The position numbers and the translations under genes are program-made. From a phage: a stretch of 64,000 nt of DNA. Shown piece by piece: positions 8,488 through 63,909 of this stretch. How positions within the stretch are numbered: position 1 is the stretch's first letter; each line of letters begins with the position of its first letter. The stretch lies in the sequence record PV946933.1. The stretch is one strand, 5' to 3'. The notes under the pieces were generated by a model, which saw only the letters and a list, made by a program, of their open reading frames with translations, had not been told where the DNA came from and searched no databases.

Positions 8488-8489
8488 TA

Positions 8490-8514
8490 GGGAGCCTTCG
8501 GGCTCCCTTTTTTA
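8490..8514 (+). terminator. intrinsic terminator
   Basis: GGGAGCC-TTCG-GGCTCCC plus T6. Confidence 0.85.
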
Positions 8515-8520
8515 TTTCAA

Positions 8521-12953: not shown

Positions 12954-12982
12954 TTTACTTTGCCACAAGGATGTGGTATAAT
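12953..12982 (+). promoter_or_regulatory. T4-type early promoter
   Basis: GTTTACTTTGCCACAAGGATGTGGTATAAT; same core as 59090-59119. Confidence 0.7.
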
Positions 12983-14012: not shown

Positions 14013-14064
14013 TTTAAAGCCAAGGATGGCTCGGAGTATAAATCATTAACCAAGTGAGAAGAAC

Positions 14065-20830: not shown

Positions 20831-20904
20831 CTCATATTCTGTATATTACCATTCTAAGCTATCGTTCCCTTCTTATCATTCCCTAAAATAATTTTCACAA
20901 AGTT

Positions 20905-20934
20905 GTTTACAAGAAGTTTAAACTGTGGTATTAT
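20905..20934 (+). promoter_or_regulatory. T4-type early promoter
   Basis: GTTTAC-N18-TATTAT with conserved upstream TTTTCACAAAG block. Confidence 0.65.
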
Positions 20935-20964
20935 TAACATATAAATTGCCTTTGAGGATTTAAT

Positions 20965-21572: not shown

Positions 21573-21773
21573 ATGAATCCTGAATCTAAATTATCGCAAC
21601 GAATTGCCGAAGCTCGTCGTCAGTTCTTTGAAAATATGATAGCCCAAGGTATTGATGACGAAGTTTTTCTGAACTGGTTTTGGAATCACAAATATTCAAG
21701 CTGTTCAGGGGCAATATTAATATCAGCCGCAATGATGTATGAAGGCTGGAAAGGTGCCAAACAGTTTAGCTAA
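21573..21773 (+). CDS. hypothetical small protein (66 aa)
   Basis: Followed by terminator 21773-21791. Confidence 0.45.
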   Translation: MNPESKLSQRIAEARRQFFENMIAQGIDDEVFLNWFWNHKYSSCSGAILISAAMMYEGWKGAKQFS

Positions 21774-21791
21774 GGGCTTCGGCCCTTTTTG
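21773..21791 (+). terminator. intrinsic terminator
   Basis: AGGGC-TTCG-GCCCT plus T5. Confidence 0.8.
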
Positions 21792-24141: not shown

Positions 24142-24208
24142 GGAGCTTCGGCTCCTATATTGCTTTATAAATTTTTGGTAAAATAAACCAAAACAATGAG
24201 GATATTAA

Positions 24209-25411
24209 ATGAAAGTATGTATTTTTATGGCTCGAGGTCTTGAAGGTTGCGGTGTAACTAAATTTTCTCTTGAGCAGCGTGATTGGTTTATTAAAAATGG
24301 TCATGAAGTAACTTTGGTTTATGCTAAAGATAAATCATTTACTCGTAATTGCGCGCATGATTATAAATCATTTTCAATTCCGGTTTTATTGGCAAAAGAA
24401 TACGATAAAACGCTTAAGCTGGTAAATGATTGTGATATTCTAGTTATCAATTCAGTTCCTGCTACTTCAGTCGAAGAAGACACAATTAATAACTATAAAA
24501 AAATTATTGATAACATTAAACCTTCGGTTCGTGTTGTAGTTTATCAGCATGACCATTCTTCTCTTTCTTTGCGTCGAAATTTGGGATTAGAAGAAACTGT
24601 TCGTCGAGCTGATGTTATTTTTAGCCATTCTGATAATGGTGACTTTAATAAAGTTTTGATGAAAGAATGGTATCCGGAAACTGTTTCTCTGTTTGATGAT
24701 ATTGAAGAAGCACCGACCGTATATAACTTTCAGCCTCCTATGGATATTGCGAAGGTTCGATCAACCTACTGGAAAGATGTTTCTGAAATTAACATGAATA
24801 TCAACCGTTGGATTGGTCGTACTACTACATGGAAAGGCTTTTATCAGATGTTTGATTTTCATGAAAAACATCTTAAACCTGCAGGACTAAGTACTATTAT
24901 GGAAGGTCTGGAACGTTCTCCAGCGTTCATTCCTATTAAAGAAAAAGGAATTCCATACGAGTATTATCGTCTTCATCAAGTAGACCAAATTAAAATTGCT
25001 CCTAATTTGCCGACGCAAATTCTTGACCGTTATGTAAATAGCGAAATGCTTGAACGCATGAGTAAATCCGGATTTGGTTATCAGCTGAGTAAGTTGGACA
25101 AAAAATATCTACAGCGTTCTTTAGAATACACTCATCTCGAGCTTGGTGCATGTGGAACAATTCCAGTATTTTGGAAATCTACTGGCGAAAATTTAAAATT
25201 CCGTGTTGATAATACTCCATTAATTTCACACGATAGCGGTATCGTTTGGTTTGATGAAAATGACATGGAATCAACATTTGAACGTATTAAAGAACTGTCA
25301 TCTGACCGAGCTCTTTATGATCGCGAACGCGAAAAAGCTTATGAATTTTTGTATCAGCATCAAGATTCAAGCTTCTGCTTTAAAGAACAGTTTGACATTA
25401 TTACAAAATAA
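24209..25411 (+). CDS. agt: DNA alpha-glucosyltransferase
   Basis: 400 aa; sequence recalled as near-identical to T4 alpha-gt. Confidence 0.9.
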   Translation: MKVCIFMARGLEGCGVTKFSLEQRDWFIKNGHEVTLVYAKDKSFTRNCAHDYKSFSIPVLLAKEYDKTLKLVNDCDILVINSVPATSVEEDTINNYKKIIDNIKPSVRVVVYQHDHSSLSLRRNLGLEETVRRADVIFSHSDNGDFNKVLMKEWYPETVSLFDDIEEAPTVYNFQPPMDIAKVRSTYWKDVSEINMNINRWIGRTTTWKGFYQMFDFHEKHLKPAGLSTIMEGLERSPAFIPIKEKGIPYEYYRLHQVDQIKIAPNLPTQILDRYVNSEMLERMSKSGFGYQLSKLDKKYLQRSLEYTHLELGACGTIPVFWKSTGENLKFRVDNTPLISHDSGIVWFDENDMESTFERIKELSSDRALYDREREKAYEFLYQHQDSSFCFKEQFDIITK

Positions 25412-25434
25412 AGGGCTTCGGCCCTTTAGCTTTA
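25412..25434 (+). terminator. intrinsic terminator
   Basis: AGGGC-TTCG-GCCCT then TTAGCTTTA. Confidence 0.7.
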
Positions 25435-29431: not shown

Positions 29432-30118
29432 ATGAAACTGTCTAAAGATACTACTGCTCTGCTCAAAAATTTCGCTACTATTAACTCCGGTATTATGCTT
29501 AAATCCGGTCAATTTATTATGACTCGCGCGGTTAATGGTACAACTTATGCAGAAGCAAATATTTCTGACACTATTGATTTTGATGTAGCAATTTACGATT
29601 TGAACGGTTTTCTCGGTATTCTGTCTCTAGTTAATGATGATGCAGAAATTTCCCAGTCAGAAGATGGTAATATTAAAATTGCTGATGCCCGTTCAACAAT
29701 TTTTTGGCCAGCAGCCGATCCGAGTACAGTAGTTGCTCCTAATAAACCAATTCCATTCCCGGTAGCATCTGTTGTTACTGAAATTAAAGCTGAAGACCTT
29801 CAACAGCTGTTGCGTGTATCTCGTGGTCTGCAGATTGATACAATCGCTATCACAGTAAAAGAAGGTAAAATCGTAATTAACGGTTTTAATAAAGTAGAAG
29901 ATTCTGCTTTGACCCGTGTTAAATATTCTTTGACTCTTGGTGATTATGATGGTGAAAATACATTTAATTTCATTATCAATATGGCAAATATGAAAATGCA
30001 ACCAGGAAATTATAAACTTCTGCTCTGGGCAAAAGGTAAACAAGGCGCTGCTAAATTTGAAGGTGAACACGCGAATTATGTAGTAGCTCTTGAAGCTGAT
30101 TCTACCCACGACTTTTAA
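29432..30118 (+). CDS. 45: sliding clamp gp45
   Basis: 228 aa; recalled T4 gp45; MotA-box middle promoter upstream. Confidence 0.92.
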   Translation: MKLSKDTTALLKNFATINSGIMLKSGQFIMTRAVNGTTYAEANISDTIDFDVAIYDLNGFLGILSLVNDDAEISQSEDGNIKIADARSTIFWPAADPSTVVAPNKPIPFPVASVVTEIKAEDLQQLLRVSRGLQIDTIAITVKEGKIVINGFNKVEDSALTRVKYSLTLGDYDGENTFNFIINMANMKMQPGNYKLLLWAKGKQGAAKFEGEHANYVVALEADSTHDF

Positions 30119-30121
30119 TAG

Positions 30122-30140
30122 AGGGCTTCGGCCCTTTATA
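30122..30140 (+). terminator. intrinsic terminator after gene 45
   Basis: AGGGC-TTCG-GCCCT then TTTATAATTT. Confidence 0.7.
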
Positions 30141-30169
30141 ATTTACACTAAAACTTGAATGAGGAAATT

Positions 30170-31695: not shown

Positions 31696-32064
31696 ATGAT
31701 TGAAATTACTCTTAAAAAACCTGAAGATTTTCTGAAAGTTAAAGAAACTTTGACTCGTATGGGAATTGCTAATAATAAAGATAAAGTTCTGTATCAGTCC
31801 TGTCATATTCTTCAGAAAAAAGGACTATACTATATCGTTCATTTTAAAGAAATGCTTCGTATGGATGGTCGTCAAGTTGAAATGACAGAAGAAGATGAAG
31901 TTCGTCGTGATTCGATTGCATGGCTGTTAGAAGATTGGGGACTGATTGAAATCGCTCCAGGTCAAAGAACTTTTATGAAAGATTTAACTAATAACTTCCG
32001 AGTTATTTCTTTTAAGCAAAAACATGAATGGAAACTCGTTCCCAAATATACGATTGGTAATTAA
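31696..32064 (+). CDS. regA: translational repressor RegA
   Basis: 122 aa; position after 62 as in T4. Confidence 0.88.
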   Translation: MIEITLKKPEDFLKVKETLTRMGIANNKDKVLYQSCHILQKKGLYYIVHFKEMLRMDGRQVEMTEEDEVRRDSIAWLLEDWGLIEIAPGQRTFMKDLTNNFRVISFKQKHEWKLVPKYTIGN

Positions 32065-32066
32065 GC

Positions 32067-32090
32067 AAGGGGCTTCGGCCCCTTATTTGG
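32067..32090 (+). terminator. intrinsic terminator after regA
   Basis: AAGGGGC-TTCG-GCCCCTT then ATTT. Confidence 0.7.
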
Positions 32091-32142
32091 AGTATAATAT
32101 ATCAAGAGCCTAATAACTCGGGCTATAAACTAAGGAATATCT

Positions 32143-34851: not shown

Positions 34852-34874
34852 AGGGACCTCCAGGTCCCTTTTTC
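34852..34874 (+). terminator. intrinsic terminator after gene 43
   Basis: AGGGACC-TCCA-GGTCCCT plus T5. Confidence 0.85.
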
Positions 34875-34936: not shown

Positions 34937-35025
34937 AAAATTTTTTCACAAAACTGTTTACATCCCTGTTCTTCCATGGTACTATACAACTATCAACTAC
35001 TGATACGGATTTGGAGAATGAAATG
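34937..35025 (+). repeat. PeSL-like promoter-leader cassette, copy 2
   Basis: Same conserved upstream block, GTTTAC, GGTACTATACAACTATCAACT, GATACGGATTTGGAGAAT and ATG. Confidence 0.8.
34956..34985 (+). promoter_or_regulatory. T4-type early promoter (in PeSL copy 2)
   Basis: GTTTAC-N18-TACTAT. Confidence 0.7.
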
Positions 35026-35403
35026 AAAATCGCTATTTTGGTTATTGCATTGGGTCTTACTGGTTGTGTAGCTCAAGGACCGGTAGTAAATCAGTCTGAT
35101 GTAGGAAAAATTGTAAACTGTTCAAGCAAATTTTATAATCCTAATGTCAAGTGTTATAAAGAAGCTCCAAAACAGACAGTAGAACAAATGCAGGCGAATT
35201 TTGACGAAGCTATTCGTCCAGATGAATCTGCACAAGCATATCGTAATTCAGATGTGATTACGCGTGAAGAAAAAATTGAAAACTACTGCGCCATGCTTTG
35301 GGCAAATTGGGCTAATAATTACCAATGGCGTACAGGTAAAAACGCTCCGATGGAGTATGTAGTGAATTCTTATAATTCATGTGTAAAAAATTTGACTAAG
35401 TGA
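35023..35403 (+). CDS. lipoprotein (126 aa) driven by PeSL-like cassette
   Basis: Signal peptide with lipobox LTGC; Cys-containing mature part. Confidence 0.55.
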   Translation: MKIAILVIALGLTGCVAQGPVVNQSDVGKIVNCSSKFYNPNVKCYKEAPKQTVEQMQANFDEAIRPDESAQAYRNSDVITREEKIENYCAMLWANWANNYQWRTGKNAPMEYVVNSYNSCVKNLTK

Positions 35404-35815: not shown

Positions 35816-36556
35816 ATGATTAATGACTCTATGACAGTTGAAGAAATCCGTCTTCATTTAGGAATTGCATTAAAGGAAAAAGATTTCGTAGTTGATAAAA
35901 CTGGTGTTAAAACTATTGAAATTATTGGTGCATCATTTGTAGCAGATGAACCTTTTATTTTTGGTGCTCTTAATGATGAATACATTCAGCGTGAACTTGA
36001 ATGGTATAAATCTAAAAGTTTGTTTGTTAAAGATATTCCGGGTGAAACACCGAAGATTTGGCAGCAGGTAGCATCTTCTAAAGGCGAAATTAATTCGAAT
36101 TACGGTTGGGCCATCTGGTCAGAAGATAACTATGCTCAGTATGATATGTGTTTAGCTGAACTTGGTCAAAATCCTGATTCTCGCCGCGGTATCATGATTT
36201 ATACTCGTCCATCCATGCAGTTTGACTACAACAAAGATGGTATGTCAGATTTCATGTGTACGAATACAGTACAGTACCTGATTCGTGATAAGAAAATTAA
36301 TGCAGTGGTTAACATGAGAAGTAATGATTGCTGGGCAGGCTATCGTAATGATTATGCATGGCAAAAATACGTACTAGATAAATTAGTATCTGATTTGAAT
36401 GCAGGCGACCCATCGCGGCAATATAAAGCAGGTTCTATTATATGGAACGTTGGAAGTCTTCATGTTTACGAAAATCAGTTTTATTTAGTTGACCATTGGT
36501 GGAACACCGGTGAAACTCATATTGCTAAAAAGGATTATACTGGAAAATGGAAGTAA
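35816..36556 (+). CDS. 42: dCMP hydroxymethylase gp42
   Basis: 246 aa; thymidylate-synthase-like fold motifs. Confidence 0.9.
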   Translation: MINDSMTVEEIRLHLGIALKEKDFVVDKTGVKTIEIIGASFVADEPFIFGALNDEYIQRELEWYKSKSLFVKDIPGETPKIWQQVASSKGEINSNYGWAIWSEDNYAQYDMCLAELGQNPDSRRGIMIYTRPSMQFDYNKDGMSDFMCTNTVQYLIRDKKINAVVNMRSNDCWAGYRNDYAWQKYVLDKLVSDLNAGDPSRQYKAGSIIWNVGSLHVYENQFYLVDHWWNTGETHIAKKDYTGKWK

Positions 36557-37188
36557 ATGTGCCACATGTTTATAAGTATAAACATCCTAAAACTAAAAAG
36601 TGGTATATAGGAAGTCACGATGGTCACAACCCGAATTATGATGGTTCGGGTGTAGTTTGGCAACATGCTAAAAAGAAATATGGAATAAAATCCTTTAATA
36701 AAGAAATATTATATGAAGGACCGATGTTTAGACAAGTTGAAGAAATTATTTTAACTTGTTTAGATGCTGCTAATTGCCCGGATTCATATAATTTAAAGAA
36801 TGAAGCGTGGGGAGGAAGTTTTCCAGGTAAATTAAATGGAATGTACGGTAAGAAACTATCTCCAGAAGAAAGATATAAATGTGGAAATGCCTTTCGTGGA
36901 ATCAAGCGTCCTGATCATTCTAAAAGAATGAAAGGCGAAGGTAATCCAATGTATGGTAAAAATGAACAGGCATATGGAATTATAAATCGAGCAAAGGAAA
37001 ATTCTGGTAAAACTTATGAAGAAATTTTTGGCGCAGAAAAAGCTAAAATAATTAAAGAAACGATGTCTAAAAATCGTAAAGGAAAACCTCATAATTTGAT
37101 AGAAAAAATATGTCCGCATTGCGGACTAAAAGGACGTGGGCCAAATATGACAAGATACCATTTTGACAAATGTAAGGCACTTAAATGA
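36547..37188 (+). CDS. GIY-YIG-type homing-endonuclease-like protein with NUMOD3 repeats and C-terminal zinc finger
   Basis: VYKY...KWYIGS (GIY-YIG-like), NLKNE, repeated G-x-K/R-x-S/P-x-E/H motifs, CPHCG...C; start overlaps gene 42 stop. Confidence 0.55.
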   Translation: MEVNVPHVYKYKHPKTKKWYIGSHDGHNPNYDGSGVVWQHAKKKYGIKSFNKEILYEGPMFRQVEEIILTCLDAANCPDSYNLKNEAWGGSFPGKLNGMYGKKLSPEERYKCGNAFRGIKRPDHSKRMKGEGNPMYGKNEQAYGIINRAKENSGKTYEEIFGAEKAKIIKETMSKNRKGKPHNLIEKICPHCGLKGRGPNMTRYHFDKCKALK

Positions 37189-38027
37189 TTCAATTCGTAA
37201 TTCCAAGTTATCAACGCGTAGGGGCAGTTTCTGCCCTTGATATGTTTCCATCTGATTATGAACCACATATTGTAGTACGTAAACACGAAGAAAAAGCTTA
37301 TTATGACGCTTATGGGTCTAGAGCTAAAATTATAACTATTCCTGATGATGTTAATGGAATTGCTGGTACTCGTAAAGCAATTACTGATATGTATGCAGGT
37401 CAACGAATTTGGATGATTGATGATGATACTACTATTCGTATGAGTTCAATGCGAAAGAAAGATGATCGTCGCTGCGTAGATAAAATTAATCAATTAACCC
37501 GTGAACAGTTCTATGAATTGATTCAATACGTTGAAGATGCCATGGATTGCGGGTATTATCATGGCCATGCTCGTCTACCTATTTTTAAAATTACTTCATC
37601 TTGGGGTAATTATCGTGAAAATTCATATGGATTCACGAATACTTGGTATGACCTCGGGAAACTTACTACAGAACAAATTGGGTATGGAAAAATTGATTTA
37701 TGCGAAGATATGTATGCATTTCTCAATTTAATTAATCAAGGTTATCCGCATTTGGCCTTGTTCAAATATCTGGTTGTATCTGGAAAAGCACAAGCTCCTG
37801 GCGGATGTAGTTCAATTCGTAGTAATTCAAAACATAATAGAGCGCTCGAGCAAATCAATAGAGAGTTTCCAGAGCAAGCTCGTTGGAAAACTTCTAATAT
37901 TGAAAAACGAAAATCATTAGGTGAAGAAGACGAGCCATTAAAGGTTCTTCGTATGTGTGTTTCGCGCAAAGAAAAATCAGAAGCGTTTCATAAGTTTAGT
38001 GCTATTCATCCAATAGCAGTTGATTAA
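37185..38027 (+). CDS. GT-A fold glycosyltransferase; candidate beta-glucosyl-HMC-alpha-glucosyltransferase (T2/T6 type)
   Basis: VIPSYQR N-terminal motif and DDD (DxD) motif; occupies the beta-gt slot between 42 and uvsX. Confidence 0.55.
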   Translation: MIQFVIPSYQRVGAVSALDMFPSDYEPHIVVRKHEEKAYYDAYGSRAKIITIPDDVNGIAGTRKAITDMYAGQRIWMIDDDTTIRMSSMRKKDDRRCVDKINQLTREQFYELIQYVEDAMDCGYYHGHARLPIFKITSSWGNYRENSYGFTNTWYDLGKLTTEQIGYGKIDLCEDMYAFLNLINQGYPHLALFKYLVVSGKAQAPGGCSSIRSNSKHNRALEQINREFPEQARWKTSNIEKRKSLGEEDEPLKVLRMCVSRKEKSEAFHKFSAIHPIAVD

Positions 38028-39632: not shown

Positions 39633-41060
39633 GTGGTAGAAATTATTCTTTCTCATCTCATATTTGATCAAGCTTATTTTTCAAAAGTTTGGCCATATAT
39701 GGATTCAGAATATTTTGAAAGTGGTCCAGCTAAAAATACGTTCAAATTAATTAAATCTCATGTTAATGAGTACCATAGCGTTCCATCTATTAATGCGTTA
39801 AATGTTGCATTAGAAAATAGTTCATTTACTGAAACAGAATATTCTGGTGTAAAAACACTTATTTCAAAACTGGCTGATTCTCCGGAAGACCACAGTTGGT
39901 TAGTAAAAGAAACGGAAAAATATGTTCAGCAAAGGGCGATGTTTAATGCTACGTCTAAAATAATTGAAATTCAAACTAATGCTGAACTTCCTCCGGAAAA
40001 ACGAAATAAGAAAATGCCGGATGTTGGTGCTATTCCTGACATCATGCGCCAAGCATTATCAATTTCATTTGATAGTTACGTTGGTCATGATTGGATGGAT
40101 GACTATGAAGCACGTTGGCTATCTTATATGAATAAAGCCCGTAAGGTTCCATTTAAACTCAAAATTCTAAATAAAATTACTAAAGGCGGAGCTGAGACTG
40201 GAACACTGAACGTTTTAATGGCTGGTGTTAACGTTGGTAAGTCATTAGGATTATGTTCATTAGCAGCAGATTATTTACAGCTCGGACATAATGTTCTTTA
40301 CATTTCCATGGAAATGGCAGAAGAAGTCTGTGCTAAGCGTATTGATGCTAATATGCTTGATGTTTCTCTTGATGACATTGATGATGGACATATTTCTTAC
40401 GCTGAATATAAAGGAAAAATGGAAAAATGGCGTGAGAAATCTACTCTCGGTCGTTTAATCGTTAAACAGTATCCTACTGGTGGAGCAGACGCTAATACAT
40501 TTCGTTCTCTTTTGAACGAATTGAAGCTCAAGAAGAATTTTGTTCCAACAATCATTATTGTCGACTATCTAGGTATTTGTAAATCTTGCCGCATCAGAGT
40601 TTACTCAGAAAATAGTTACACAACTGTTAAAGCTATCGCAGAGGAATTGCGTGCTCTGGCTGTTGAAACCGAAACTGTTCTTTGGACTGCAGCGCAGGTT
40701 GGTAAGCAAGCTTGGGATTCTTCTGATGTTAACATGAGCGATATTGCAGAATCCGCCGGTCTTCCAGCAACAGCTGATTTTATGCTTGCGGTCATTGAAA
40801 CCGAGGAGTTAGCAGCTGCTGAACAACAACTCATTAAGCAAATCAAATCACGATATGGTGATAAGAATAAATGGAATAAGTTTTTGATGGGTGTTCAAAA
40901 AGGAAATCAAAAATGGGTAGAAATTGAGCAAGATTCTACTCCAACTGAAGTGAACGAAGTAGCAGGTTCACAGCAGATTCAGGCTGAACAGAACCGCTAT
41001 CAAAGAAATGAATCGGCTCGAGCTCAGTTAGATGCTTTGGCAAATGAATTAAAATTTTAG
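39633..41060 (+). CDS. 41: replicative helicase gp41 (DnaB-like)
   Basis: 475 aa; GTG start; Walker A GVNVGKS. Confidence 0.93.
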   Translation: MVEIILSHLIFDQAYFSKVWPYMDSEYFESGPAKNTFKLIKSHVNEYHSVPSINALNVALENSSFTETEYSGVKTLISKLADSPEDHSWLVKETEKYVQQRAMFNATSKIIEIQTNAELPPEKRNKKMPDVGAIPDIMRQALSISFDSYVGHDWMDDYEARWLSYMNKARKVPFKLKILNKITKGGAETGTLNVLMAGVNVGKSLGLCSLAADYLQLGHNVLYISMEMAEEVCAKRIDANMLDVSLDDIDDGHISYAEYKGKMEKWREKSTLGRLIVKQYPTGGADANTFRSLLNELKLKKNFVPTIIIVDYLGICKSCRIRVYSENSYTTVKAIAEELRALAVETETVLWTAAQVGKQAWDSSDVNMSDIAESAGLPATADFMLAVIETEELAAAEQQLIKQIKSRYGDKNKWNKFLMGVQKGNQKWVEIEQDSTPTEVNEVAGSQQIQAEQNRYQRNESARAQLDALANELKF

Positions 41061-41089
41061 TTTACAAGCTGACAAGACTATGGTATAGT
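41060..41089 (+). promoter_or_regulatory. T4-type early promoter inside 9-bp inverted repeat
   Basis: GTTTACAAG; arms ACAAGACTA 41072-41080 / TAGTCTTGT 41089-41097. Confidence 0.65.
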
Positions 41090-41118
41090 AGTCTTGTTGG
41101 TTAAATGAGGAGATTTTT

Positions 41119-41547: not shown

Positions 41548-41577
41548 GTTTACAAGCTGATAGAGTTGTGTTATAGT
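41548..41577 (+). promoter_or_regulatory. T4-type early promoter inside 9-bp inverted repeat
   Basis: GTTTACAAG; arms GCTGATAGA 41556-41564 / TCTATCAGC 41581-41589. Confidence 0.65.
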
Positions 41578-41609
41578 AATTCTATCAGCTAATCGCGGAG
41601 AAAAGAAAA

Positions 41610-41864
41610 ATGATGCTAGTTAATAGAGAATATCAGTTTAAATCAGAAGAAGATTTGGAAAAATTCGCAAGTGGTTGTGAACTGAATAGACGCACAGCTA
41701 AAGTCATAGGATTAAAACCCTTTACAGTTCTAGATTGTGAAGTTTCTAAATTCCGCAGAGGGTGTTCTATTAGCGGTCATGCTCTGGTTGATGGGAACAC
41801 ATTTTTCTTTGTTTTTAGCGTCAGAGAACTTTTATTGATTAACGAACTTGAGGAAATAAAATAG
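41610..41864 (+). CDS. hypothetical protein (84 aa)
   Basis: Early promoter 41548-41577 upstream. Confidence 0.45.
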   Translation: MMLVNREYQFKSEEDLEKFASGCELNRRTAKVIGLKPFTVLDCEVSKFRRGCSISGHALVDGNTFFFVFSVRELLLINELEEIK

Positions 41865-41893
41865 TTTACTTTTGTTGGAAATTGAGATACTAT
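41864..41893 (+). promoter_or_regulatory. T4-type early promoter
   Basis: GTTTAC-N18-TACTAT upstream of sp. Confidence 0.6.
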
Positions 41894-41921
41894 ATAAACA
41901 TAAACTACTGAGGAGATTATC

Positions 41922-44002: not shown

Positions 44003-44012
44003 AATATTTATC
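44003..44012 (-). promoter_or_regulatory. late-promoter-like element for minus-strand membrane ORF
   Basis: ATAAATAT on minus strand (7/8 of TATAAATA) followed by AGGAGG. Confidence 0.35.
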
Positions 44013-44030
44013 GCAAATTTTACAAAATTT

Positions 44031-44060
44031 GTTTACTTTCTCAGCTTGCTGTGGTATTAT
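44031..44060 (+). promoter_or_regulatory. T4-type early promoter
   Basis: GTTTAC-N18-TATTAT; inverted repeat CTCAGC 44040-44045 / GCTGAG 44071-44076 includes RBS. Confidence 0.65.
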
Positions 44061-44085
44061 AAAATAAACTGCTGAGGATAATATA

Positions 44086-44523
44086 ATGATTAATAAAATT
44101 GTACATGAAATGGCTTTAAACGGAGATTCATATAAAATATCTGCCGTAGTTGAAAATTTCATACTTAATAAAGTAAAAGAATATTTCACTGATTGTTCAG
44201 TTAGTTATCAAGAAAAAATGGTTTTAATCGACGATACTGAAAAATCAAATAATTTGTTTTGTTCGAATTTTACAACTAAGAAGCGTACTAGAAGATTTGA
44301 TATTGTCATTTCTCGCAATGGTAAAAAGCATATAATTGAAATCAAACACCAAGTTGGTGGAGGTACAGCCATTGATTCGGTTGGAATATATCTGGAAGAT
44401 AAAGATAAATTAAAAGAATACACAAAAACTGAAAATCCTGTGTCATTGATGATATTAGATTTTTTGCCATGCGGATATTATCCGCGTAATAAGTGGACAA
44501 AAAGAGAATCATTTACTGATTGA
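44086..44523 (+). CDS. hypothetical protein with PD-(D/E)xK-like motif (145 aa)
   Basis: RFDIVI...HIIEIKHQ resembles the D...E-x-K nuclease core; early promoter upstream. Confidence 0.45.
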   Translation: MINKIVHEMALNGDSYKISAVVENFILNKVKEYFTDCSVSYQEKMVLIDDTEKSNNLFCSNFTTKKRTRRFDIVISRNGKKHIIEIKHQVGGGTAIDSVGIYLEDKDKLKEYTKTENPVSLMILDFLPCGYYPRNKWTKRESFTD

Positions 44524-44640
44524 TAATCCAACCATCCAAGCAAGGTTTAATGAATATGCTAAATCACAAAACGTGTTAGTATTACTATCAAATACATATG
44601 ATGAAGAATTATATAATTCGTTTTTTGCTGCAATAAATGA

Positions 44641-45429
<789 letters not shown>

Positions 45430-45489
45430 CTGCTTATATATTCAAATGATATAATTATTTAACTTATTAATGAATTGAAAGGAAAAATA

Positions 45490-46008
45490 ATGGCTTACTT
45501 TAACGAATGTTCACAATTGATCGAAGGCGCTGATAAAGCTCAAAATGAATACTGGGATATTCTCGGTGATGAAAAAGACCCTCTGCAGGTTATGCTTGAT
45601 ATGCAGAAATCTCTGCAAGTTCGTTTAGCTAAAGATAAACCTGAATATAACCGTCATCCTGATGATTTGGCTACCGCAGGTGAAGTTGTTGATTGGCTGC
45701 GTAATCAGAAAGATTATATTGACGATGAATTCCGTGAACTTCTAACTTCTCTTGGCGGTATGAGCAATGGCGAAAAAGATGCATCTGCTGTATGGAAGCC
45801 TTGGAAAGCTCAACATGGTGAACGCCGTGAAACTCTAATTACTGATTTGTCTCCACAAGACCAGTTGGAAATTAAATTCGAAATGATCGATATTCTTCAT
45901 TTCGTTCTGAACATGTTCCAAGGTCTTGGTCTTACGGCTGAAGAAATCTTTAAACTTTATTATCTGAAAAATGCTGAAAACTTCGCTCGTCAAGACCGAG
46001 GTTATTAA
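45490..46008 (+). CDS. 56: dCTPase/dUTPase gp56
   Basis: 172 aa from ATG 45490; MazG-like; recalled T4 gp56. Confidence 0.85.
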   Translation: MAYFNECSQLIEGADKAQNEYWDILGDEKDPLQVMLDMQKSLQVRLAKDKPEYNRHPDDLATAGEVVDWLRNQKDYIDDEFRELLTSLGGMSNGEKDASAVWKPWKAQHGERRETLITDLSPQDQLEIKFEMIDILHFVLNMFQGLGLTAEEIFKLYYLKNAENFARQDRGY

Positions 46009-46053
46009 TAGCTCGTTTATTTAAACGACGACTTAAAAGCCGCGAGAATTTAT

Positions 46054-46061
46054 TATAAATA
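46054..46061 (+). promoter_or_regulatory. late promoter of soc
   Basis: TATAAATA about 30 nt upstream of soc ATG. Confidence 0.65.
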
Positions 46062-49772: not shown

Positions 49773-49828
49773 TGGAAGGACTTAGATTCATTATACCATG
49801 AAAGTTTTAAAGCATTTTTCATAAAGTT

Positions 49829-49858
49829 GTTTACAAGCTGAAGTAAAAATGATATAGT
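49829..49858 (+). promoter_or_regulatory. T4-type early promoter
   Basis: GTTTACAAG-N-TATAGT. Confidence 0.6.
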
Positions 49859-49895
49859 ATATAATATAAGTAGTTAACCCGTCCGTGAGAAAAAT

Positions 49896-54799: not shown

Positions 54800-54829
54800 G
54801 TTTACAAACTCTTGGGACCAGAGTATAAT
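54800..54829 (+). promoter_or_regulatory. T4-type early promoter inside inverted repeat
   Basis: GTTTAC-N18-TATAAT; arms GGGACC 54814-54819 / GGTCCC 54830-54835. Confidence 0.65.
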
Positions 54830-54872
54830 GGTCCCTGGAGTATAAAATCTTTTTAACAAGTGAGAGATAACT

Positions 54873-55370
54873 ATGATTATTAATATTGGTGAAATTGCTC
54901 GTGTATCTGATAAATCCCGTTCTAAAGCAGCAGGAAAATTGGTTGAAATTGTAAGCATTCAGCTTAAACGTGGTGTTAAAGACGAAGATTCTGAAGTAAA
55001 AGTGCGTATCATTCCTAAAGATGGAAAGTCTAAACCTCAGTTTGGCTATGTTCGTGCGAAATTTCTTGAATCTGCGTTTTTGAAAGCTGTTCCTGCTAAA
55101 GGAATTGAAACGATTGATACTTCGCATGTAGGTGTAGACTTTAAGTGGAAACTCGGTCAGGCTATTAAGTTCATTGCTCCTTATGAATTCGAATTTACTG
55201 AAGATGAGGAAGGGGTTGTTCAAAAACACCGTACTCGTGCTATGTGCGCATACATTACCGATCAGTGGGTAGAAGATGGCGTTAAGTTGTACAACGCAGT
55301 ATTTTTAGGAACATACAAAGTCATTCCCGAAAGTTGGATTAAACACTATAGCAAAGCCCGCTATGCATAA
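54873..55370 (+). CDS. hypothetical protein (165 aa), paralog of 54255-54797; position compatible with motB
   Basis: See above; early promoter 54800-54829. Confidence 0.5.
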   Translation: MIINIGEIARVSDKSRSKAAGKLVEIVSIQLKRGVKDEDSEVKVRIIPKDGKSKPQFGYVRAKFLESAFLKAVPAKGIETIDTSHVGVDFKWKLGQAIKFIAPYEFEFTEDEEGVVQKHRTRAMCAYITDQWVEDGVKLYNAVFLGTYKVIPESWIKHYSKARYA

Positions 55371-55371
55371 A

Positions 55372-55470
55372 ATTTAAAATTTTTCATAAAACTATATACA
55401 TCAGTAGTTGATTATGGTACTATATCAATATCAACTACTGATACAGAAAAACAACTTGGAGAATAAAATG
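55372..55470 (+). repeat. PeSL-like cassette, divergent copy 4
   Basis: TATGGTACTATATCAATATCAACTACTGATACAG...CTTGGAGAATAAAATG; -35 diverged. Confidence 0.6.
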
Positions 55471-55737
55471 GAAAACTTAATTATCATCGAACAATCTTTC
55501 AACGATTATGGTACGGCTTATGGTTATCGTGCGATAATGGAAGATTCTCGTGGATGTGTTATCGATATTGCTGAATGTAAAGATTTACTGCAGCTTTTGA
55601 AGATTGTTCGTAAAAATTGGGATTGTGAAAACATTAAAGTTCGTGTTGTAACGGAAGAAGAAACTGTTTTTCATGATGTAAAATTTGCCAAAGGTGCTGC
55701 TACTCTTCTGAAACGCATCACTCCAATGTTCAATTAA
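55468..55737 (+). CDS. hypothetical protein (89 aa) driven by PeSL-like cassette
   Basis: Conserved leader ...TTGGAGAATAAAATG. Confidence 0.5.
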   Translation: MENLIIIEQSFNDYGTAYGYRAIMEDSRGCVIDIAECKDLLQLLKIVRKNWDCENIKVRVVTEEETVFHDVKFAKGAATLLKRITPMFN

Positions 55738-55750
55738 TGAGGAAATTGTA

Positions 55751-56942: not shown

Positions 56943-57203
56943 ATGAAATATGTTAATCGTTCTATCGCGGCATTAGTATTAGCAGTATCTTTAGTAGGAT
57001 GTACTGATGCTGATAATGCAACCAAAGTTTTGTCTTCAAGCGGTTTTACTAATATTGAAATCACTGGATATAATTGGTTCGGTTGCTCTGAAAATGATTT
57101 CCAACATACTGGATTTCGTGCTATTGGACCTACCGGGCAGAAAGTAGAAGGAACAGTATGTTCTGGGCTGTTCTTTAAGGATTCAACTATCCGTTTTAAA
57201 TAA
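56943..57203 (+). CDS. small lipoprotein (86 aa)
   Basis: Signal peptide with lipobox LVGC. Confidence 0.5.
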   Translation: MKYVNRSIAALVLAVSLVGCTDADNATKVLSSSGFTNIEITGYNWFGCSENDFQHTGFRAIGPTGQKVEGTVCSGLFFKDSTIRFK

Positions 57204-57228
57204 AAGGCCTTCGGGCCTTTAGCTTTAT
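57204..57228 (+). terminator. intrinsic terminator
   Basis: AAGGCC-TTCG-GGCCTT then TAGCTTTA. Confidence 0.7.
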
Positions 57229-57245: not shown

Positions 57246-57272
57246 ATTCCCGAAACCAAACGAGGATAAGTG

Positions 57273-59090
57273 ATGATTAAGAATGAAATTAAAATTCTGA
57301 GCGATATTGAACATATCAAAAAGCGTAGTGGCATGTATATTGGCTCTTCTGCTAATGAAATGCATGAGCGCTTTCTGTTTGGTAAATGGGAAAGTGTTCA
57401 GTATGTACCTGGTCTTGTTAAGCTTATTGATGAAATTATCGATAACTCAGTAGATGAAGGTATTCGTACTAAGTTTAAATTCGCAAATAAAATTAATGTT
57501 ACCATTAAAAATAATCAGGTAACAGTTGAAGATAACGGTCGTGGTATTCCACAAGCGATGGTTAAAACACCTACGGGTGAAGAAATTCCTGGTCCTGTTG
57601 CTGCCTGGACTATTCCAAAAGCAGGCGGTAACTTTGGTGATGATAAAGAACGCGTCACTGGCGGTATGAACGGTGTTGGTTCTAGTTTAACTAACATTTT
57701 TTCTGTGATGTTTGTCGGTGAAACTGGTGATGGCCAAAATAATATTGTAGTTCGTTGTTCAAACGGCATGGAAAATAAATCATGGGAAACTATTCCTGGA
57801 AAATGGAAAGGAACTCGTGTTACTTTCATTCCCGATTTTATGTCATTTGAAACTAATGAGCTGTCTCAAGTTTATCTTGACATTACACTGGACCGTCTCC
57901 AGACACTTGCAGTAGTTTATCCTGATATTCAATTTACCTTTAATGGTAAAAAGGTTCAGGGTAATTTTAAGAAATATGCACGTCAATATGATGAGCATGC
58001 TATCGTTCAAGAACAAGAAAACTGTTCTATTGCGGTCGGTCGTTCACCGGATGGTTTTCGTCAATTAACATACGTCAATAACATTCATACTAAGAATGGT
58101 GGCCATCACATTGACTGCGTTATGGATGATATTTGTGAAGACCTTATTCCACAAATCAAACGTAAGTTCAAAATTGATGTAACTAAAGCACGTGTTAAAG
58201 AATGTTTGACTATCGTTATGTTTGTTCGTGATATGAAAAACATGCGATTTGACTCTCAAACTAAAGAGCGTCTGACTTCTCCATTTGGTGAAATTCGTAG
58301 TCATATTCAGCTTGATGCCAAAAAGATTTCACGTGCTATTTTAAATAATGAAGCAATTTTAATGCCAATCATTGAAGCTGCCCTTGCTCGTAAATTGGCG
58401 GCAGAAAAAGCAGCAGAAACTAAAGCAGCTAAAAAGGCTTCTAAAGCTAAGGTTCATAAACATATTAAAGCGAATCTTTGTGGTAAAGATGCTGATACTA
58501 CTCTTTTCTTGACTGAGGGTGATTCTGCTATTGGATATCTTATTGATGTTCGTGATAAAGAACTTCATGGTGGTTATCCATTGCGTGGTAAAGTTCTCAA
58601 CAGTTGGGGTATGTCATATGCTGATATGCTTAAAAACAAAGAACTGTTTGATATTTGCGCAATCACTGGATTAGTTCTTGGTGAAAAAGCTGAAAACTTG
58701 AATTATCATAATATTGCTATTATGACTGATGCTGACCATGATGGTCTAGGAAGCATTTATCCTTCTCTGCTCGGATTTTTTAGTAATTGGCCAGAATTGT
58801 TTGAACAAGGAAGAATTCGCTTTGTCAAAACTCCTGTAATCATCGCTCAGGTCGGTAAAAAACAAGAATGGTTTTATACAGTCGCTGAATATGAGAGTGC
58901 TAAAGATGCTCTACCTAAACATAGCATCCGTTATATTAAGGGACTTGGCTCTTTGGAAAAATCTGAGTATCGTGAGATGATTCAAAATCCAGTATATGAT
59001 GTTGTTAAACTTCCTGAGAATTGGAAGGAGCTTTTTGAAATGCTCATGGGAGATAATGCTGACCTTCGTAAAGAATGGATGAGCCAATAG
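57273..59090 (+). CDS. 39: DNA topoisomerase II large subunit, unsplit (GyrB-like ATPase plus TOPRIM)
   Basis: 605 aa; GHKL ATPase motifs and TOPRIM region (LTEGDSA...DADHDG) in one continuous ORF. Confidence 0.9.
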   Translation: MIKNEIKILSDIEHIKKRSGMYIGSSANEMHERFLFGKWESVQYVPGLVKLIDEIIDNSVDEGIRTKFKFANKINVTIKNNQVTVEDNGRGIPQAMVKTPTGEEIPGPVAAWTIPKAGGNFGDDKERVTGGMNGVGSSLTNIFSVMFVGETGDGQNNIVVRCSNGMENKSWETIPGKWKGTRVTFIPDFMSFETNELSQVYLDITLDRLQTLAVVYPDIQFTFNGKKVQGNFKKYARQYDEHAIVQEQENCSIAVGRSPDGFRQLTYVNNIHTKNGGHHIDCVMDDICEDLIPQIKRKFKIDVTKARVKECLTIVMFVRDMKNMRFDSQTKERLTSPFGEIRSHIQLDAKKISRAILNNEAILMPIIEAALARKLAAEKAAETKAAKKASKAKVHKHIKANLCGKDADTTLFLTEGDSAIGYLIDVRDKELHGGYPLRGKVLNSWGMSYADMLKNKELFDICAITGLVLGEKAENLNYHNIAIMTDADHDGLGSIYPSLLGFFSNWPELFEQGRIRFVKTPVIIAQVGKKQEWFYTVAEYESAKDALPKHSIRYIKGLGSLEKSEYREMIQNPVYDVVKLPENWKELFEMLMGDNADLRKEWMSQ

Positions 59091-59119
59091 TTTACTTTAC
59101 CACAAGGATGTGGTATAAT
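59090..59119 (+). promoter_or_regulatory. T4-type early promoter
   Basis: GTTTACTTTACCACAAGGATGTGGTATAAT. Confidence 0.7.
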
Positions 59120-61547: not shown

Positions 61548-62486
61548 ATGTACAATATTAAATGCCTGACCAAAAACGAACAAGCTGAAATTGTCAAACT
61601 GTATTCAAGCGGTAATTATACCCAACAGGAATTGGCTGATTGGCAAGGTGTATCGGTTGACACAATCCGTCGTGTTTTGAAAAATGCTGAAGAAGCTGAA
61701 CGCTCCAAAGTTACCATTAGCGGTGACATTACAGTTGAAGTTAAGAGTGATGTAGCTATTGCTCCAGTTGCTAAATCTGACATTATTTGGAATGCATCTA
61801 AAAAATTCATTTCAATTACTGTTGACGGTGTAACTTATAACGCAACTCCTAATACTCATTCAAACTTCCAAGAAATTCTTAATCTGCTTGTAGCGGATAA
61901 GTTGGAAGAAGCAGCGCAAAAAATTAACGTTCGTCGCGCTGTTGAAAAATATATTTCTGGTGATGTTCGAATTGAAGGTGGAAGCTTGTTCTATCAAAAC
62001 ATTGAATTGCGGTCTGGTTTAGTTGATCGTATTCTTGATTCGATGGAAAAAGGCGAAAACTTTGAATTTTATTTTCCGTTCTTGGAAAATCTGCTGGAAA
62101 ATCCAAGCCAAAAAGCGGTGTCTCGACTCTTTGATTTCTTGGTAGCAAACGATATTGAAATTACAGAAGACGGCTACTTCTATGCTTGGAAAGTAGTTCG
62201 TAGCAATTACTTTGACTGTCACTCAAATACCTTTGATAACAGTCCTGGTAAAGTAGTTAAAATGCCACGTACTCGTGTGAATGACGATGATACACAAACT
62301 TGTTCTCGTGGTCTGCATGTGTGTTCTAAATCTTATATTCGTCACTTTGGCAGTTCAACCAGCCGAGTTGTAAAAGTTAAAGTACATCCTCGCGATGTAG
62401 TATCAATTCCGATTGATTACAACGATGCTAAAATGCGTACCTGCCAATACGAAGTAGTTGAAGACGTTACTGAACAATTTAAATAA
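61548..62486 (+). CDS. rIIB: rIIB
   Basis: 312 aa directly after rIIA. Confidence 0.85.
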   Translation: MYNIKCLTKNEQAEIVKLYSSGNYTQQELADWQGVSVDTIRRVLKNAEEAERSKVTISGDITVEVKSDVAIAPVAKSDIIWNASKKFISITVDGVTYNATPNTHSNFQEILNLLVADKLEEAAQKINVRRAVEKYISGDVRIEGGSLFYQNIELRSGLVDRILDSMEKGENFEFYFPFLENLLENPSQKAVSRLFDFLVANDIEITEDGYFYAWKVVRSNYFDCHSNTFDNSPGKVVKMPRTRVNDDDTQTCSRGLHVCSKSYIRHFGSSTSRVVKVKVHPRDVVSIPIDYNDAKMRTCQYEVVEDVTEQFK

Positions 62487-62500
62487 GGGCTTCGGCCCTT
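62485..62500 (+). terminator. GC-rich UUCG hairpin without T-run (stability element or weak terminator)
   Basis: AAGGGC-TTCG-GCCCTT followed by AACTAAGG. Confidence 0.4.
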
Positions 62501-62514
62501 AACTAAGGAAAATT

Positions 62515-62709
62515 ATGTTAGGTTATCAAGCACGAGTAAAAGAAGAATACGATCAATTAATGCTCAAAATTAATGCGCTGAGCAAATTTTTAGAAAGCAC
62601 AAAGTTTATAACGATTAATGAAGTTGAGCAAGAATTACTGCTTTCACAATTCATCTCAATGAAATCTTACGCAGATTGTTTAGAGAAAAGAATTGCACAA
62701 TTCAAATAA
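62515..62709 (+). CDS. hypothetical small helical protein (64 aa)
   Basis: Flanked by hairpins 62485-62500 and 62713-62737. Confidence 0.45.
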   Translation: MLGYQARVKEEYDQLMLKINALSKFLESTKFITINEVEQELLLSQFISMKSYADCLEKRIAQFK

Positions 62710-62712
62710 AAT

Positions 62713-62737
62713 AAAGGGCTTCGGCCCTTTTGTTTTA
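62713..62737 (+). terminator. intrinsic terminator
   Basis: AAGGGC-TTCG-GCCCTT then TTGTTTT. Confidence 0.8.
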
Positions 62738-62795: not shown

Positions 62796-63353
62796 ATGCA
62801 GAAAACGAATCCGGGTTTACAGAGACTATTTCAGATTCCGACATTTACCCTATCGAACAATGACTTGACTAGTGAAATGAAGGTCAAAATTGCTGATACA
62901 GCAAGATATTCTTTAAAACAAAATCCTAATCAGGATAAAGCAGAAGTTATTGAAAGATGTCGTATCGCTGTGTACGCAGAGTTTTTTGTAGCAGATTGGC
63001 TAAGCGGGTATGTTAACAAAGGCCAAGAGGATGTTAATGACCCGTATACATACGCATGGGATGTATTGGCGCATCCAAAATACTGTGGGCTTCGTGTAGA
63101 AGTCAAAACACATCAAACTGACTCACGTTGGATTTCGGTAACAACCGGATGCAGCGGAGAGTATCCATACGGTTCTGGAATAAATCTAGGGCCCATTCTA
63201 AATCATCAAGTCGCTGACTGTATAATTATATTCAACACTAAAGAAATTCATCCAGGTGTCATCCAGTACACTCCGAAGTTCATCGGTGATAGAGAAGACC
63301 TTCGTAAGGTTGTAAGAAAAAGCAACTACAACGGATGGTATCTTTCCATTTAA
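62796..63353 (+). CDS. endonuclease IV (DenB)-like protein, 185 aa
   Basis: Length and position next to rIIB match T4 denB; sequence not verified. Confidence 0.5.
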   Translation: MQKTNPGLQRLFQIPTFTLSNNDLTSEMKVKIADTARYSLKQNPNQDKAEVIERCRIAVYAEFFVADWLSGYVNKGQEDVNDPYTYAWDVLAHPKYCGLRVEVKTHQTDSRWISVTTGCSGEYPYGSGINLGPILNHQVADCIIIFNTKEIHPGVIQYTPKFIGDREDLRKVVRKSNYNGWYLSI

Positions 63354-63436
63354 AAATTTTCACAAAACGGTTTACATACCACAAGGACTGTGGTACTATA
63401 CAACTATCAACTGATACGGATTTGGAGAATAAAATG
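63352..63436 (+). repeat. PeSL-like promoter-leader cassette, copy 3
   Basis: Same as copies 1 and 2. Confidence 0.8.
63370..63399 (+). promoter_or_regulatory. T4-type early promoter (in PeSL copy 3)
   Basis: GTTTAC-N18-TACTAT. Confidence 0.7.
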
Positions 63437-63640
63437 TTTACTACAGCTGAATTAAAACGAGCAAAAGCTAAGAAAGGGAAAGGAAAATATAAAGCTGAAT
63501 TAGTTAAAGAACTTCAGTTTGCTGAGGCTGAATTGAATTCAATGATTATTCAAAATGCTCCAGAAACTGAAATTGCTCTTAAACGTATTGCGAATAAGTG
63601 TCTTCGTGATGCAATTGTCGATCTTTTAGCGGATTATTGA
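63434..63640 (+). CDS. hypothetical small basic protein (68 aa) driven by PeSL-like cassette
   Basis: Conserved leader; track start 63335 runs through the promoter. Confidence 0.5.
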   Translation: MFTTAELKRAKAKKGKGKYKAELVKELQFAEAELNSMIIQNAPETEIALKRIANKCLRDAIVDLLADY

Positions 63641-63909
63641 GTAAAATGAAATTTAAATTTTATTACGCTAAACATAAAATAACTGATGAGTTTGTGTCAG
63701 TTGAATATTCTAGCGATGATGAAGGAATGATTTATACTCGCTTGGGACTATCGCACTGGGAGTCTGACACGCCTTATTTTTCAACTCCCGAAGAAATTAC
63801 ACGCTTAGTTAATGGTCATATGAATGACCACTGGAATGTAATTCTTTCAGATAGTCTTAAAGCGGCTATTAATAGTAATGAAATGAAAATCGCTGAGATT
63901 GAACTATGA
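63637..63909 (+). CDS. hypothetical protein (90 aa)
   Basis: ORF. Confidence 0.4.
   Translation: MSKMKFKFYYAKHKITDEFVSVEYSSDDEGMIYTRLGLSHWESDTPYFSTPEEITRLVNGHMNDHWNVILSDSLKAAINSNEMKIAEIEL

Follow-up and report, generated by a model that had tools for sequence, protein, structure and literature searches.

Repeated units of a probable early promoter and a leader carrying the RegB/S1 consensus sequence in a Tequatrovirus genome

In a 64,000-nucleotide stretch of phage DNA (record PV946933.1; hereafter the window), a block of about 85 bp, running from an A/T-rich tract through a promoter to an ATG, recurs nearly verbatim in front of different genes. What keeps such a block alike at distant sites, and is it a place where genes are gained and lost? 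A first-pass annotation of the sequence had read the block as a promoter-leader cassette that is mobile and mediates modular gene shuffling, in the manner of the PeSLs of T4-type phages. The account that we favor, and hold to be probable, is that the cassettes are units of a promoter and a RegB-site leader maintained by selection, with recombination at their edges as a side effect. The promoter class, the RegB consensus, and the idea of PeSL shuffling are already published for T4 and its closest relatives; what is left over beyond that work is the conservation of the central leader and an excess of indels specific to this sub-family of promoters. This excess and the coupling of promoter to RegB site are two modest points that may be of use in phage genomics.

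Megablast places the window in the genus Tequatrovirus, where hundreds of T4-like phages of Escherichia, Shigella, and Yersinia match it at 95-98% identity. The window is colinear with T4 (chained segments of ~94% identity on average, single segments 85-98%) and matches the T4 span from ~63.9 kb, via coordinate 1, to ~166.9 kb. Its strand is opposite to the GenBank orientation of T4 and corresponds to the direction of early transcription.

Copies of the cassette and the genes behind them

A self-repeat search of the window returned an 85-nt family at 8520-8604, 34938-35022, and 63352-63436, with ungapped identities to the reference copy of 87% and 64%, the lower value belonging to the 34938 copy, in which a 3-nt ACT insertion shifts the register. 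A 48-nt family adds 9977-10024, 55394-55441, 4951-4998, 20905-20952, and 41864-41911, among which the members at 4951, 20905, and 41864 are looser relatives. The repeats in both families extend beyond the promoter hexamers, and the recurrence of an ~85-bp block at 8520-8604, 34938-35025, and 63352-63436, as well as the divergent copies that had been described at 55372-55470 and 9966-10037, is confirmed, coordinates included. A 21-mer core, GGTACTATACAACTATCAACT, has four exact matches and one with three mismatches, all on the + strand, and none in 100 dinucleotide shuffles (zero expected). The upstream block TTTTCACAAAAC, allowing at most one mismatch, occurs five times against 1.5 expected and is weak evidence by itself. 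Relatives of this upstream block had also been noted at 20891-20934 and 49817-49858; the similarity, which spans 20887-20911 and 49808-49837, is real, but these stretches belong to other, ordinary early promoters on the + strand. The one at 20887-20952 has the common UP block, -35, and TGG together with a different -10 (TATTAT) and a different leader, and the one before srd (49808-49859) has only the UP block and -35 in common with the cassettes.

All five cassettes lie on the + strand. The cassette at 8520-8604 precedes the nrdC.10 ortholog (8602-9570, 322 aa) and has its UP block at 8520-8537, -35 GTTTAC at 8538-8543, TGG plus -10 TACTAT at 8559-8567, and ATG at 8602-8604; its T4 counterpart is at T4 55324-55401. 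A partial cassette at 9966-10037 stands before the nrdC.8 ortholog (175 aa), with the common -35 (9977-9982), TGG-TACTAT, and ACAACTATCAACT, the 21-mer at 9999-10019, a short leader ACGGAGGAACACAAAATG, and ATG at 10035-10037, its UP region falling within the upstream gene. The cassette before the imm.1 ortholog (126 aa) occupies 34938-35025 (-35 at 34956-34961, 21-mer at 34978-34998, ATG at 35023-35025). The diverged cassette after motB, at 55372-55470, has the -35 variant ATATAC (55394-55399) and the 21-mer with three mismatches (55416-55436); its start codon is at 55468-55470, a small correction to the first-pass annotation, and its T4 ortholog is at T4 6550-6647. The first gene after it is a variable 89-aa gene (55468-55737, PHROG 3720). 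Finally, the cassette at 63352-63436 begins at the denB stop codon (-35 at 63370-63375, 21-mer at 63392-63412, ATG at 63434-63436) and is followed by two variable small genes within 63434-63909, which encode proteins of 68 aa (63434-63640, PHROG 4535) and 87 aa (63646-63909, PHROG 2390).

The orthologous sites in T4 (nrdC.10, nrdC.8, imm.1, downstream of denB, and before cef) carry the same cassettes, and T4 has additional full copies before motA and before e.8. Searched with the 85-nt cassette, 545 phage records matched, nearly all of them T4-like phages of Escherichia, Shigella, Yersinia, and Salmonella, at about five places per genome and with a stable copy number. Klebsiella T4-like phages that match the flanking genes were without the cassette in this search, and in IMG/VR the exact 21-mer was present in 20 stretches from seven contigs. 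In T4 and all other genomes examined the position of the cassettes is unchanged, and each orthologous site keeps its own spacer.

The genes behind the cassettes had been described as different, unrelated, and small. The downstream proteins belong to different PHROG families and are therefore unrelated, but the 322-aa product is not small. Its proposed identity as an AAA+ ATPase has P-loop/AAA matches behind it that are all sub-threshold (best E=1.2e-4, below the Pfam cut-offs), and the 126-aa protein proposed to be a lipoprotein matches Pfam DUF5481, with a lipobox-like N-terminus that can be read directly from the sequence. We also considered whether one accessory gene occurs at different cassette loci, which would amount to gene movement; this was rejected, as the first genes all fall in different PHROGs.

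A probable early promoter joined to a predicted RegB target

From 5' to 3', the cassette is composed of the A/T-rich AAAATTTTTCACAAAAC, GTTTAC(A), a 17-bp spacer, TGG-TACTAT, ACAACT, ATCAACT(ACT)GATAC(G/A)GATTT, and GGAGAATAAAATG. Published descriptions give T4 early promoters the plan UP/-35/TGn/-10, to which further consensus regions are added (PMC2988021), and the cassettes follow it: TGG-TACTAT with a 17-bp spacer (counted from TTTACA) is present in all five copies, -35 GTTTAC in four (ATATAC in the 55372 copy), and an A/T-rich UP element, AAAA(A/T)TTTTTCA(C/T)AAAAC, likewise in four, that of the 9966 copy being weaker and inside the upstream coding sequence. About 20 early-promoter-like sites are present on the + strand of the window, among which the cassettes form a sub-family with -10 TACTAT and a common leader. 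Compared with the T4 early promoters of motA, nrdC.10, imm.1, e.8, and the site downstream of denB, the cassettes are at orthologous positions, near-identical in sequence, and co-directional with early genes. There is no essential difference between the two sets; the window phage has a few substitutions and different following genes.

Moreover, in the T4 record X75802 (1994) the ortholog of the 63352 copy carries a promoter annotation with -35 GTTTACA and -10 TACTAT. The last base of this promoter feature is the A of ATCAACT; +1 therefore falls seven nt beyond the -10, and the transcribed leader is ~28 nt long. Transferred to the window, the predicted +1 is at 8574 in the 8520 copy and at 63406 in the 63352 copy. 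By analogy with the T4 orthologs, from which their activity is carried over, we infer that each cassette is a T4 early promoter followed by a short leader.

At its 3' end the leader has GGAGAATAAAATG, within which lies the published consensus for cleavage by RegB, an endoribonuclease of the phage, together with ribosomal protein S1. In Durand et al. (2006), 68 intergenic GGAG and 30 intergenic GGAU motifs were tested in T4, and efficient RegB/S1 cleavage is described as requiring the 11-nt GGAGAAUAAAA (in degenerate form GGAGRAYARAA) in single-stranded RNA, with motA as a good substrate and nrdC.8 as one that is only moderately cleaved (PMC1702504). An exact search for GGAGAATAAAA on both strands of the 64-kb window gives three sites only, all in cassettes, at 8592-8602, 55458-55468, and 63424-63434, each with GGA, a G in fourth position, and an A-rich tail of 7 nt. 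The 55458 site lies in a leader that is ~10 nt longer than the others (AAAAACAAC as opposed to ATT). Set against the consensus, the remaining two copies depart from it to different degrees: the 34938 copy, whose leader carries the ACT insertion, has one mismatch (GGAGAAUGAAA, within GGAGAATGAAA at 35013-35023), and the 9966 copy deviates with GGAGGAACACA, its T4 ortholog being the moderately cut one.

In the cassette leaders the GGAG lies 6 nt before the ATG, in Shine-Dalgarno position. When folded, the five leaders have minimum free energies of 0 to -3.8 kcal/mol, with z-scores of -0.01 to +1.2 relative to shuffles; an unstructured leader in the translation initiation region would present RegB with the single-stranded target that it needs. 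The enzyme itself is encoded in the same window, by regB (1188-1649, + strand, 153 aa; Pfam REGB_T4, E=1.4e-68), which has a promoter at 1131 and its own Shine-Dalgarno sequence, GGAGAATAACATG. An exact 11-nt consensus in three copies, its Shine-Dalgarno position in an unstructured early leader, and a regB-encoding genome are the features shared with the RegB/S1 sites described for T4 (PMC1702504), and RegB presumably cuts the cassette leaders of the window phage as it does those of motA and nrdC.8 in T4. The first-pass annotation was right about promoter-leader cassettes as such; what it missed is the RegB/S1 consensus, probably the main function of the 3' block.

The exact match to the consensus is partly circular because that consensus was derived from 26 T4 sites which probably include several paralogous cassette leaders; mutational data given there independently back the A-rich tail of the site (PMC1702504).

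RegB cleavage in the Shine-Dalgarno sequence inactivates early mRNAs within minutes (PMC3014915), and the cassette therefore reads as a burst-then-shut-off unit. In the scheme that we propose, the DNA half would be a host sigma-70 promoter of great strength, belonging to the T4 early class, with the A of ATCAACT, 7 nt beyond the -10, as its transcription start. An unstructured leader of ~28 nt would make up the RNA half, and its Shine-Dalgarno region, GGAGAAUAAAA, together with the UG of the start codon, would form the optimal RegB/S1 target. A gene behind the cassette would accordingly be transcribed and translated immediately and then be shut off within minutes by the RegB cut in its ribosome-binding site. 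The longest-conserved early-promoter sub-family would in this way couple its promoter to an optimal RegB site, and any gene inserted behind it would inherit the burst-then-shut-off programme.

One part of the leader is left over from this scheme. The central segment (ATCAACTGATACGGATTT; in RNA AUCAACU(ACU)GAUACGGAUUU) is conserved like the rest and is explained by neither the promoter nor the 11-nt RegB site. Conservation beyond any assigned function is what would be expected if the leader were first of all an operator or structured RNA for some other regulator, for example a small RNA or a translational repressor, with the RegB site in second place. Against such a role, the segment tolerates the 3-nt ACT indel, an A/G change, and, at cef and at e.8, a leader longer by ~10 nt; a search of the whole window against Rfam found no family at gathering score, and the leaders have no structure beyond that of shuffled controls. 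We consider a different main regulator very improbable. A riboswitch or sRNA-type explanation was dropped on the same two grounds, the lack of an Rfam match and the folding of the five leaders, which is no better than that of shuffles. In the literature searched, there was no match to the 15-mer TACTATACAACTATC and no relevant RNA-seq study of T4 transcription starts.

Spacer divergence, selection and copying

The alternation of common and locus-specific blocks within the cassette bears on how the copies came to be alike. We aligned 33 cassette copies, drawn from the window, T4, two further phages in GenBank, and contigs of IMG/VR. Each locus has its own 16-nt spacer, stable from genome to genome, and the UP, -35, -10, and leader blocks are common to the loci. 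The spacer reads AAGCATAAAGCTTTAT at nrdC.10, ATACCACAAGGAC(C/T)GT downstream of denB, and AACCAAAGCATACTGT at motA. Since the spacer, too, would have been carried along in any recent duplication, the pattern points to purifying selection acting on old paralogs and not to recent transposition. Under the reading that we prefer, selection for the combined function of promoter and RegB site would keep ~70 of the 85 nt identical across tens of kb, with the spacer alone free to drift.

The copies are not wholly independent of one another. At imm.1 there are two spacer haplotypes, and the one in the window is identical to that of the e.8 copy 43 kb away; a promoter-leader of the nrdC.8 type is present at the ndd.4 locus in one contig. 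These two cases indicate some exchange between paralogs. The ACT indel and the A/G site, moreover, segregate at several cassette loci. Such exchange and shared polymorphism, together with the short homology that suffices for recombination in T4 (PMC2839356), would also fit a history in which early promoters were recently duplicated or underwent gene conversion, the leader is not under selection, and the link to indels is a coincidence of hyperplastic regions. That history is hard to reconcile with 16-nt spacers that are unrelated at most loci but kept among orthologs in genomes of ~94% identity, next to identical flanking blocks, with the exact coincidence of the conserved 3' block and an experimentally defined functional site, and with the background indel rate of other early promoters nearby (0.47 against 0.42 events per junction). 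We regard it as extremely improbable.

Gene gain and loss at cassette edges

Comparison of the window with T4 gave 20 structural differences, seven of which are insertions of homing endonucleases or introns in T4 and two of which start at the ATG of a cassette. In one of these, at 63436-63877, the 68-aa gene is absent from T4 together with most of its 87-aa neighbour, the last 8 codons of which are fused to the cassette ATG. In the other, at 55478-55682, a T4 deletion of ~205 bp lies inside the 89-aa gene and begins 8 nt after the ATG; phage ES12 has a different, larger deletion (window 55482-55741) in which nearly the whole 89-aa gene is gone.

Relatives add further states at these and other cassettes. 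The locus downstream of denB occurs in at least six structural states in 508 records, with alignments that break off at the ATG (query position 641) or where CAACT ends (614-617), and the state of the window accounts for ~13% of an evenly spread sample. An extra 78-aa gene lies between the cassette ATG and imm.1 in 317 of 519 records, its junction being a shared ATGAAAAT. At motB/cef, the 89-aa gene is retained in ~42% of the spread sample and shortened by the T4-type deletion in ~44%, and a further ~9% differ upstream, with the breakpoint at the 5' edge of the cassette. At nrdC.10, ECO07P1 and CJY920 have an extra module between the terminator hairpin and the cassette, which in ECO07P1 is a complete promoter-gene-terminator unit, and TH09 and BCH953P4 have ~275 bp inserted within the leader, between CTATCAA and GGAGAATAAAATG, comprising in TH09 a 66-aa gene and a second promoter. 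The 66-aa protein has no similarity to the 68-aa protein of the window (E=4.1). The genes downstream of the cassettes at the denB-downstream, imm.1, and motB/cef loci are variably present in related phages, and the suggestion that the copies mark insertion points of accessory genes is supported by gene gain or loss at cassette edges for four of the five copies.

We compared cassette junctions with all others in six genomes (52 unique events of at least 50 bp over 119 called gene junctions, from a home-made gene list). Four of five cassette junctions were affected, at 1.6 events each, against 35 of 114 other junctions at 0.43 each, a ~3.7-fold excess (Fisher p=0.039, Poisson p=0.0017, with five cassette junctions and events that are not independent). 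Breakpoints were within the leader or at the start codon, and, of the eight events at cassette junctions, two are ordinary deletions by small homology within the first gene. Cassette junctions are modestly enriched for structural differences; with a small sample and non-independent events, we take this as moderate support. Early promoters in general were considered as indel hot spots and rejected, six of 15 such junctions being affected at 0.47 events each, compared with 0.42 at promoter-less junctions; in the six-genome comparison the excess is specific to the cassette sub-family and is not a property of early promoters generally.

An excess that is absent at other early promoters, together with the conserved central leader, would be explained if the cassette sub-family were a dedicated, integron-like gene-capture site with an invariant 21-mer and leader, at which a specific recombination activity inserts or excises accessory open reading frames at a fixed distance from the start codon. 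We think this very improbable. In the reading that we prefer, the identical leaders and similar start regions (AATAAAATGAAAAT) would serve as sites of short homology for the highly active recombination of the phage, and small accessory genes would be gained, lost, or swapped directly after the cassettes and, on occasion, before them. The process could be passive, with T4-type recombination generating the changes and selection retaining only outcomes with a working promoter-leader. We infer recombination of this kind as the cause of the indels at cassette edges.

Arbiol et al. (2010) proposed modular shuffling by such cassettes for RB49 and phi1, where inverse PCR recovered PeSL mini-circles whose crossovers lay in the stretch from the -10 to the ATG (PMC2839356). 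Comeau et al. (2014) described PeSLs in the T4/PST pair, with the consensus TTTACW-N17-TAYWAT, and reported PeSL-linked exchanges at ndd.4/.5 (PMC4122927). The window cassettes resemble these PeSLs in having an A/T-rich region, a sigma-70-like early promoter, a Shine-Dalgarno sequence, and a start codon, the early promoter, Shine-Dalgarno sequence, and start codon forming one conserved unit. They likewise adjoin indels or replacements between close relatives, at four of five cassette junctions, and the PeSL crossovers mapped between -10 and ATG are a further point of likeness.

Unlike PeSLs, which are defined by a stem-loop, the window cassettes have one within 120 nt upstream at two of five copies only, and their variable genes have a full cassette on just one side. 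A terminator-like hairpin, AGGGAGCC-TTCG-GGCTCCCT followed by a T-run, lies directly 5' of the 8520 cassette (8489-8508, + strand) and corresponds to the 'SL' part of a PeSL; another, AGGGACC-TCCA-GGTCCCT plus a T-run, lies after gene 43 (34852-34869, + strand), ~70 nt 5' of the 34938 cassette. These were the only two copies with a hairpin and T-run within 120 nt upstream; the 9966, 55372, and 63352 copies had no hairpin within that distance, and each of them has a UP region that adjoins the upstream gene or runs into it. A full cassette flanks the variable genes at 63434, 35023, and 55468 on the 5' side only, and their 3' junctions are generic start-region homologies. A second partial cassette 3' of the 68-aa gene (CGGATTATTGAGTAAAATG, 63629-63648) was considered and rejected; in leader-similarity scoring against 181 SD-plus-ATG sites it ranked about 6th, with a score of 10 tied with unrelated sites, compared with 25-29 for true cassette copies. 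The idea of mobile cassettes that shuffle genes is therefore only partly supported, since the cassettes are positionally fixed and just two of the five have the stem-loop that defines a PeSL; what holds of it is promoter-leader units standing before unrelated genes, with indels at their edges.

In its strongest form, the PeSL reading holds that genes lying between two cassettes leave the genome as mini-circles and enter it again at other cassettes, through homologous or site-specific recombination, so that the similarity of the copies reflects movement and not selection on expression. The mini-circles in RB49 and phi1 and the T4/PST exchanges speak for it, as do the 66-aa gene with its second promoter inside the nrdC.10 leader of TH09, the ECO07P1 module between hairpin and cassette (the TH09 and ECO07P1 modules are bounded by promoter or terminator repeats), and the paralog exchange seen in the imm.1/e.8 spacer type and the nrdC.8-type leader at ndd.4. 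True mobility is nonetheless unlikely in our view: orthologous positions are fixed, spacers are stable and locus-specific, the 545 records have ~5 copies per genome, first genes are non-homologous from one cassette locus to another, and the start region of the 87-aa gene, with its score of 10, is barely above generic start regions, points to which the two stem-loops in five copies and the one-sided cassettes of the variable genes are to be added. Selected promoter and RegB-site leader units, recombining at their edges, therefore remain our preferred reading.

A 'direct repeat' annotated near denB in phage Aplg8 proved unrelated to the cassettes. A parallel is the shuffling at the internal-protein (IP) loci of T-even phages, to which the idea of shuffling by such cassettes goes back (Repoila et al. 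1994, cited after PMC2839356 and PMC4122927); there, in the account given by those citing papers, highly variable small genes lie between conserved promoter and start regions. In T4, ATTTCACAAAGTTGTTTAC is common to the promoters before ipI and before trna.4, the latter of which also has GGAGAATAAAATG; these loci lie outside the window, and their promoters form a neighbouring sub-family with -10 GATACTAT and a different leader.

Early promoters shared between loci

The self-repeat search recovered a pair of early promoters, one before the nrdC.4 ortholog (12951-12982) and one before rIIA.1 (59088-59119), that lie 46 kb from each other and show 97% identity across 32 nt. This identity takes in the spacer, the common sequence reading TAGTTTACTTT(G/A)CCACAAGGATGTGGTATAAT, in contrast to the promoter-leader cassettes, whose spacers are locus-specific. 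Because the spacer is shared, the sequences suggest that the nrdC.4 and rIIA.1 promoters arose by recent copying or conversion. In T4 (73,500-74,000), the promoters before trna.4 and ipI have ATTTCACAAAGTTGTTTAC in common, and the trna.4 promoter additionally carries CTATCAACTACTGAGGAGAATAAAATG. The two promoters represent a neighbouring promoter-leader sub-family, situated at the hypervariable internal-protein locus.

Gene losses, junctions, and differences from T4

Whole-gene deletions in other genomes correspond to window positions 13030-14071 and 44011-45434, and in each case the two breakpoints lie close to the start of a gene. The first removes the nrdC.4 ortholog from BCH953P4 and CJY920, and the second removes a 145-aa gene together with dam from TH09, ES12, and KNP1; the left breakpoints fall at ordinary early promoters, 12953 and 44031, respectively. 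At the denB locus, the final codons of the 87-aa gene (63877-63895; AATGAAATGAAAATCGCT) share an 18-nt identity with 35016-35033, the junction between the imm.1 cassette and its gene, and the T4 deletion at this locus ends exactly at the 63877-63895 sequence. The identity may be what is left of an earlier cassette junction, or it may be due to chance.

Several T4 features are missing from the window: topoisomerase gene 39 is a single 606-aa ORF without the gene 60/mobA split seen in T4, and neither the nrdD intron with I-TevII nor the homing endonuclease genes mobB, mobC, mobD, segA, and segF are present (window positions of these differences: 57270-59090, 17583-19400, 24193-24218, 19397-19417, 6492-7477, and 45971-46054). 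In place of the T4 beta-glucosyltransferase and segA, the region 36547-38027 holds two other ORFs of 213 and 280 aa, which look like the alternative module for DNA glucosylation that T-even phages other than T4 carry; the 213-aa ORF is missing in TH09, ES12, KNP1, and CJY920.

Palindromic promoter-like sites and terminator hairpins

We also observed a second sub-family of early-promoter-like sites (5763-5812, 41060-41105, 41548-41598, and 54800-54850), whose -10 hexamer forms part of the loop of a palindrome, perfect over 12-15 bp, that covers the spacer and +1 region. The sequence of the palindrome arms varies among the four copies while complementarity is kept. Folded as RNA, the sites reach -18 to -24 kcal/mol (z -4.0 to -5.5 relative to shuffles), with an equally good fold in 0/200 shuffles, and a similar palindromic promoter is found immediately 5' of nrdC.10 in TH09. 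These sites could serve as overlapping terminator/promoter units, or as processing sites in read-through transcripts.

The self-repeat search additionally recovered a family of terminator hairpins recurring across the window, constructed around GGGCTTCGGCCC, with a UUCG tetraloop, and trailed by T-runs (21760-21787, 25405-25434, 30115-30144, 32062-32091, 57198-57227, 62473-62500, and 62708-62737).
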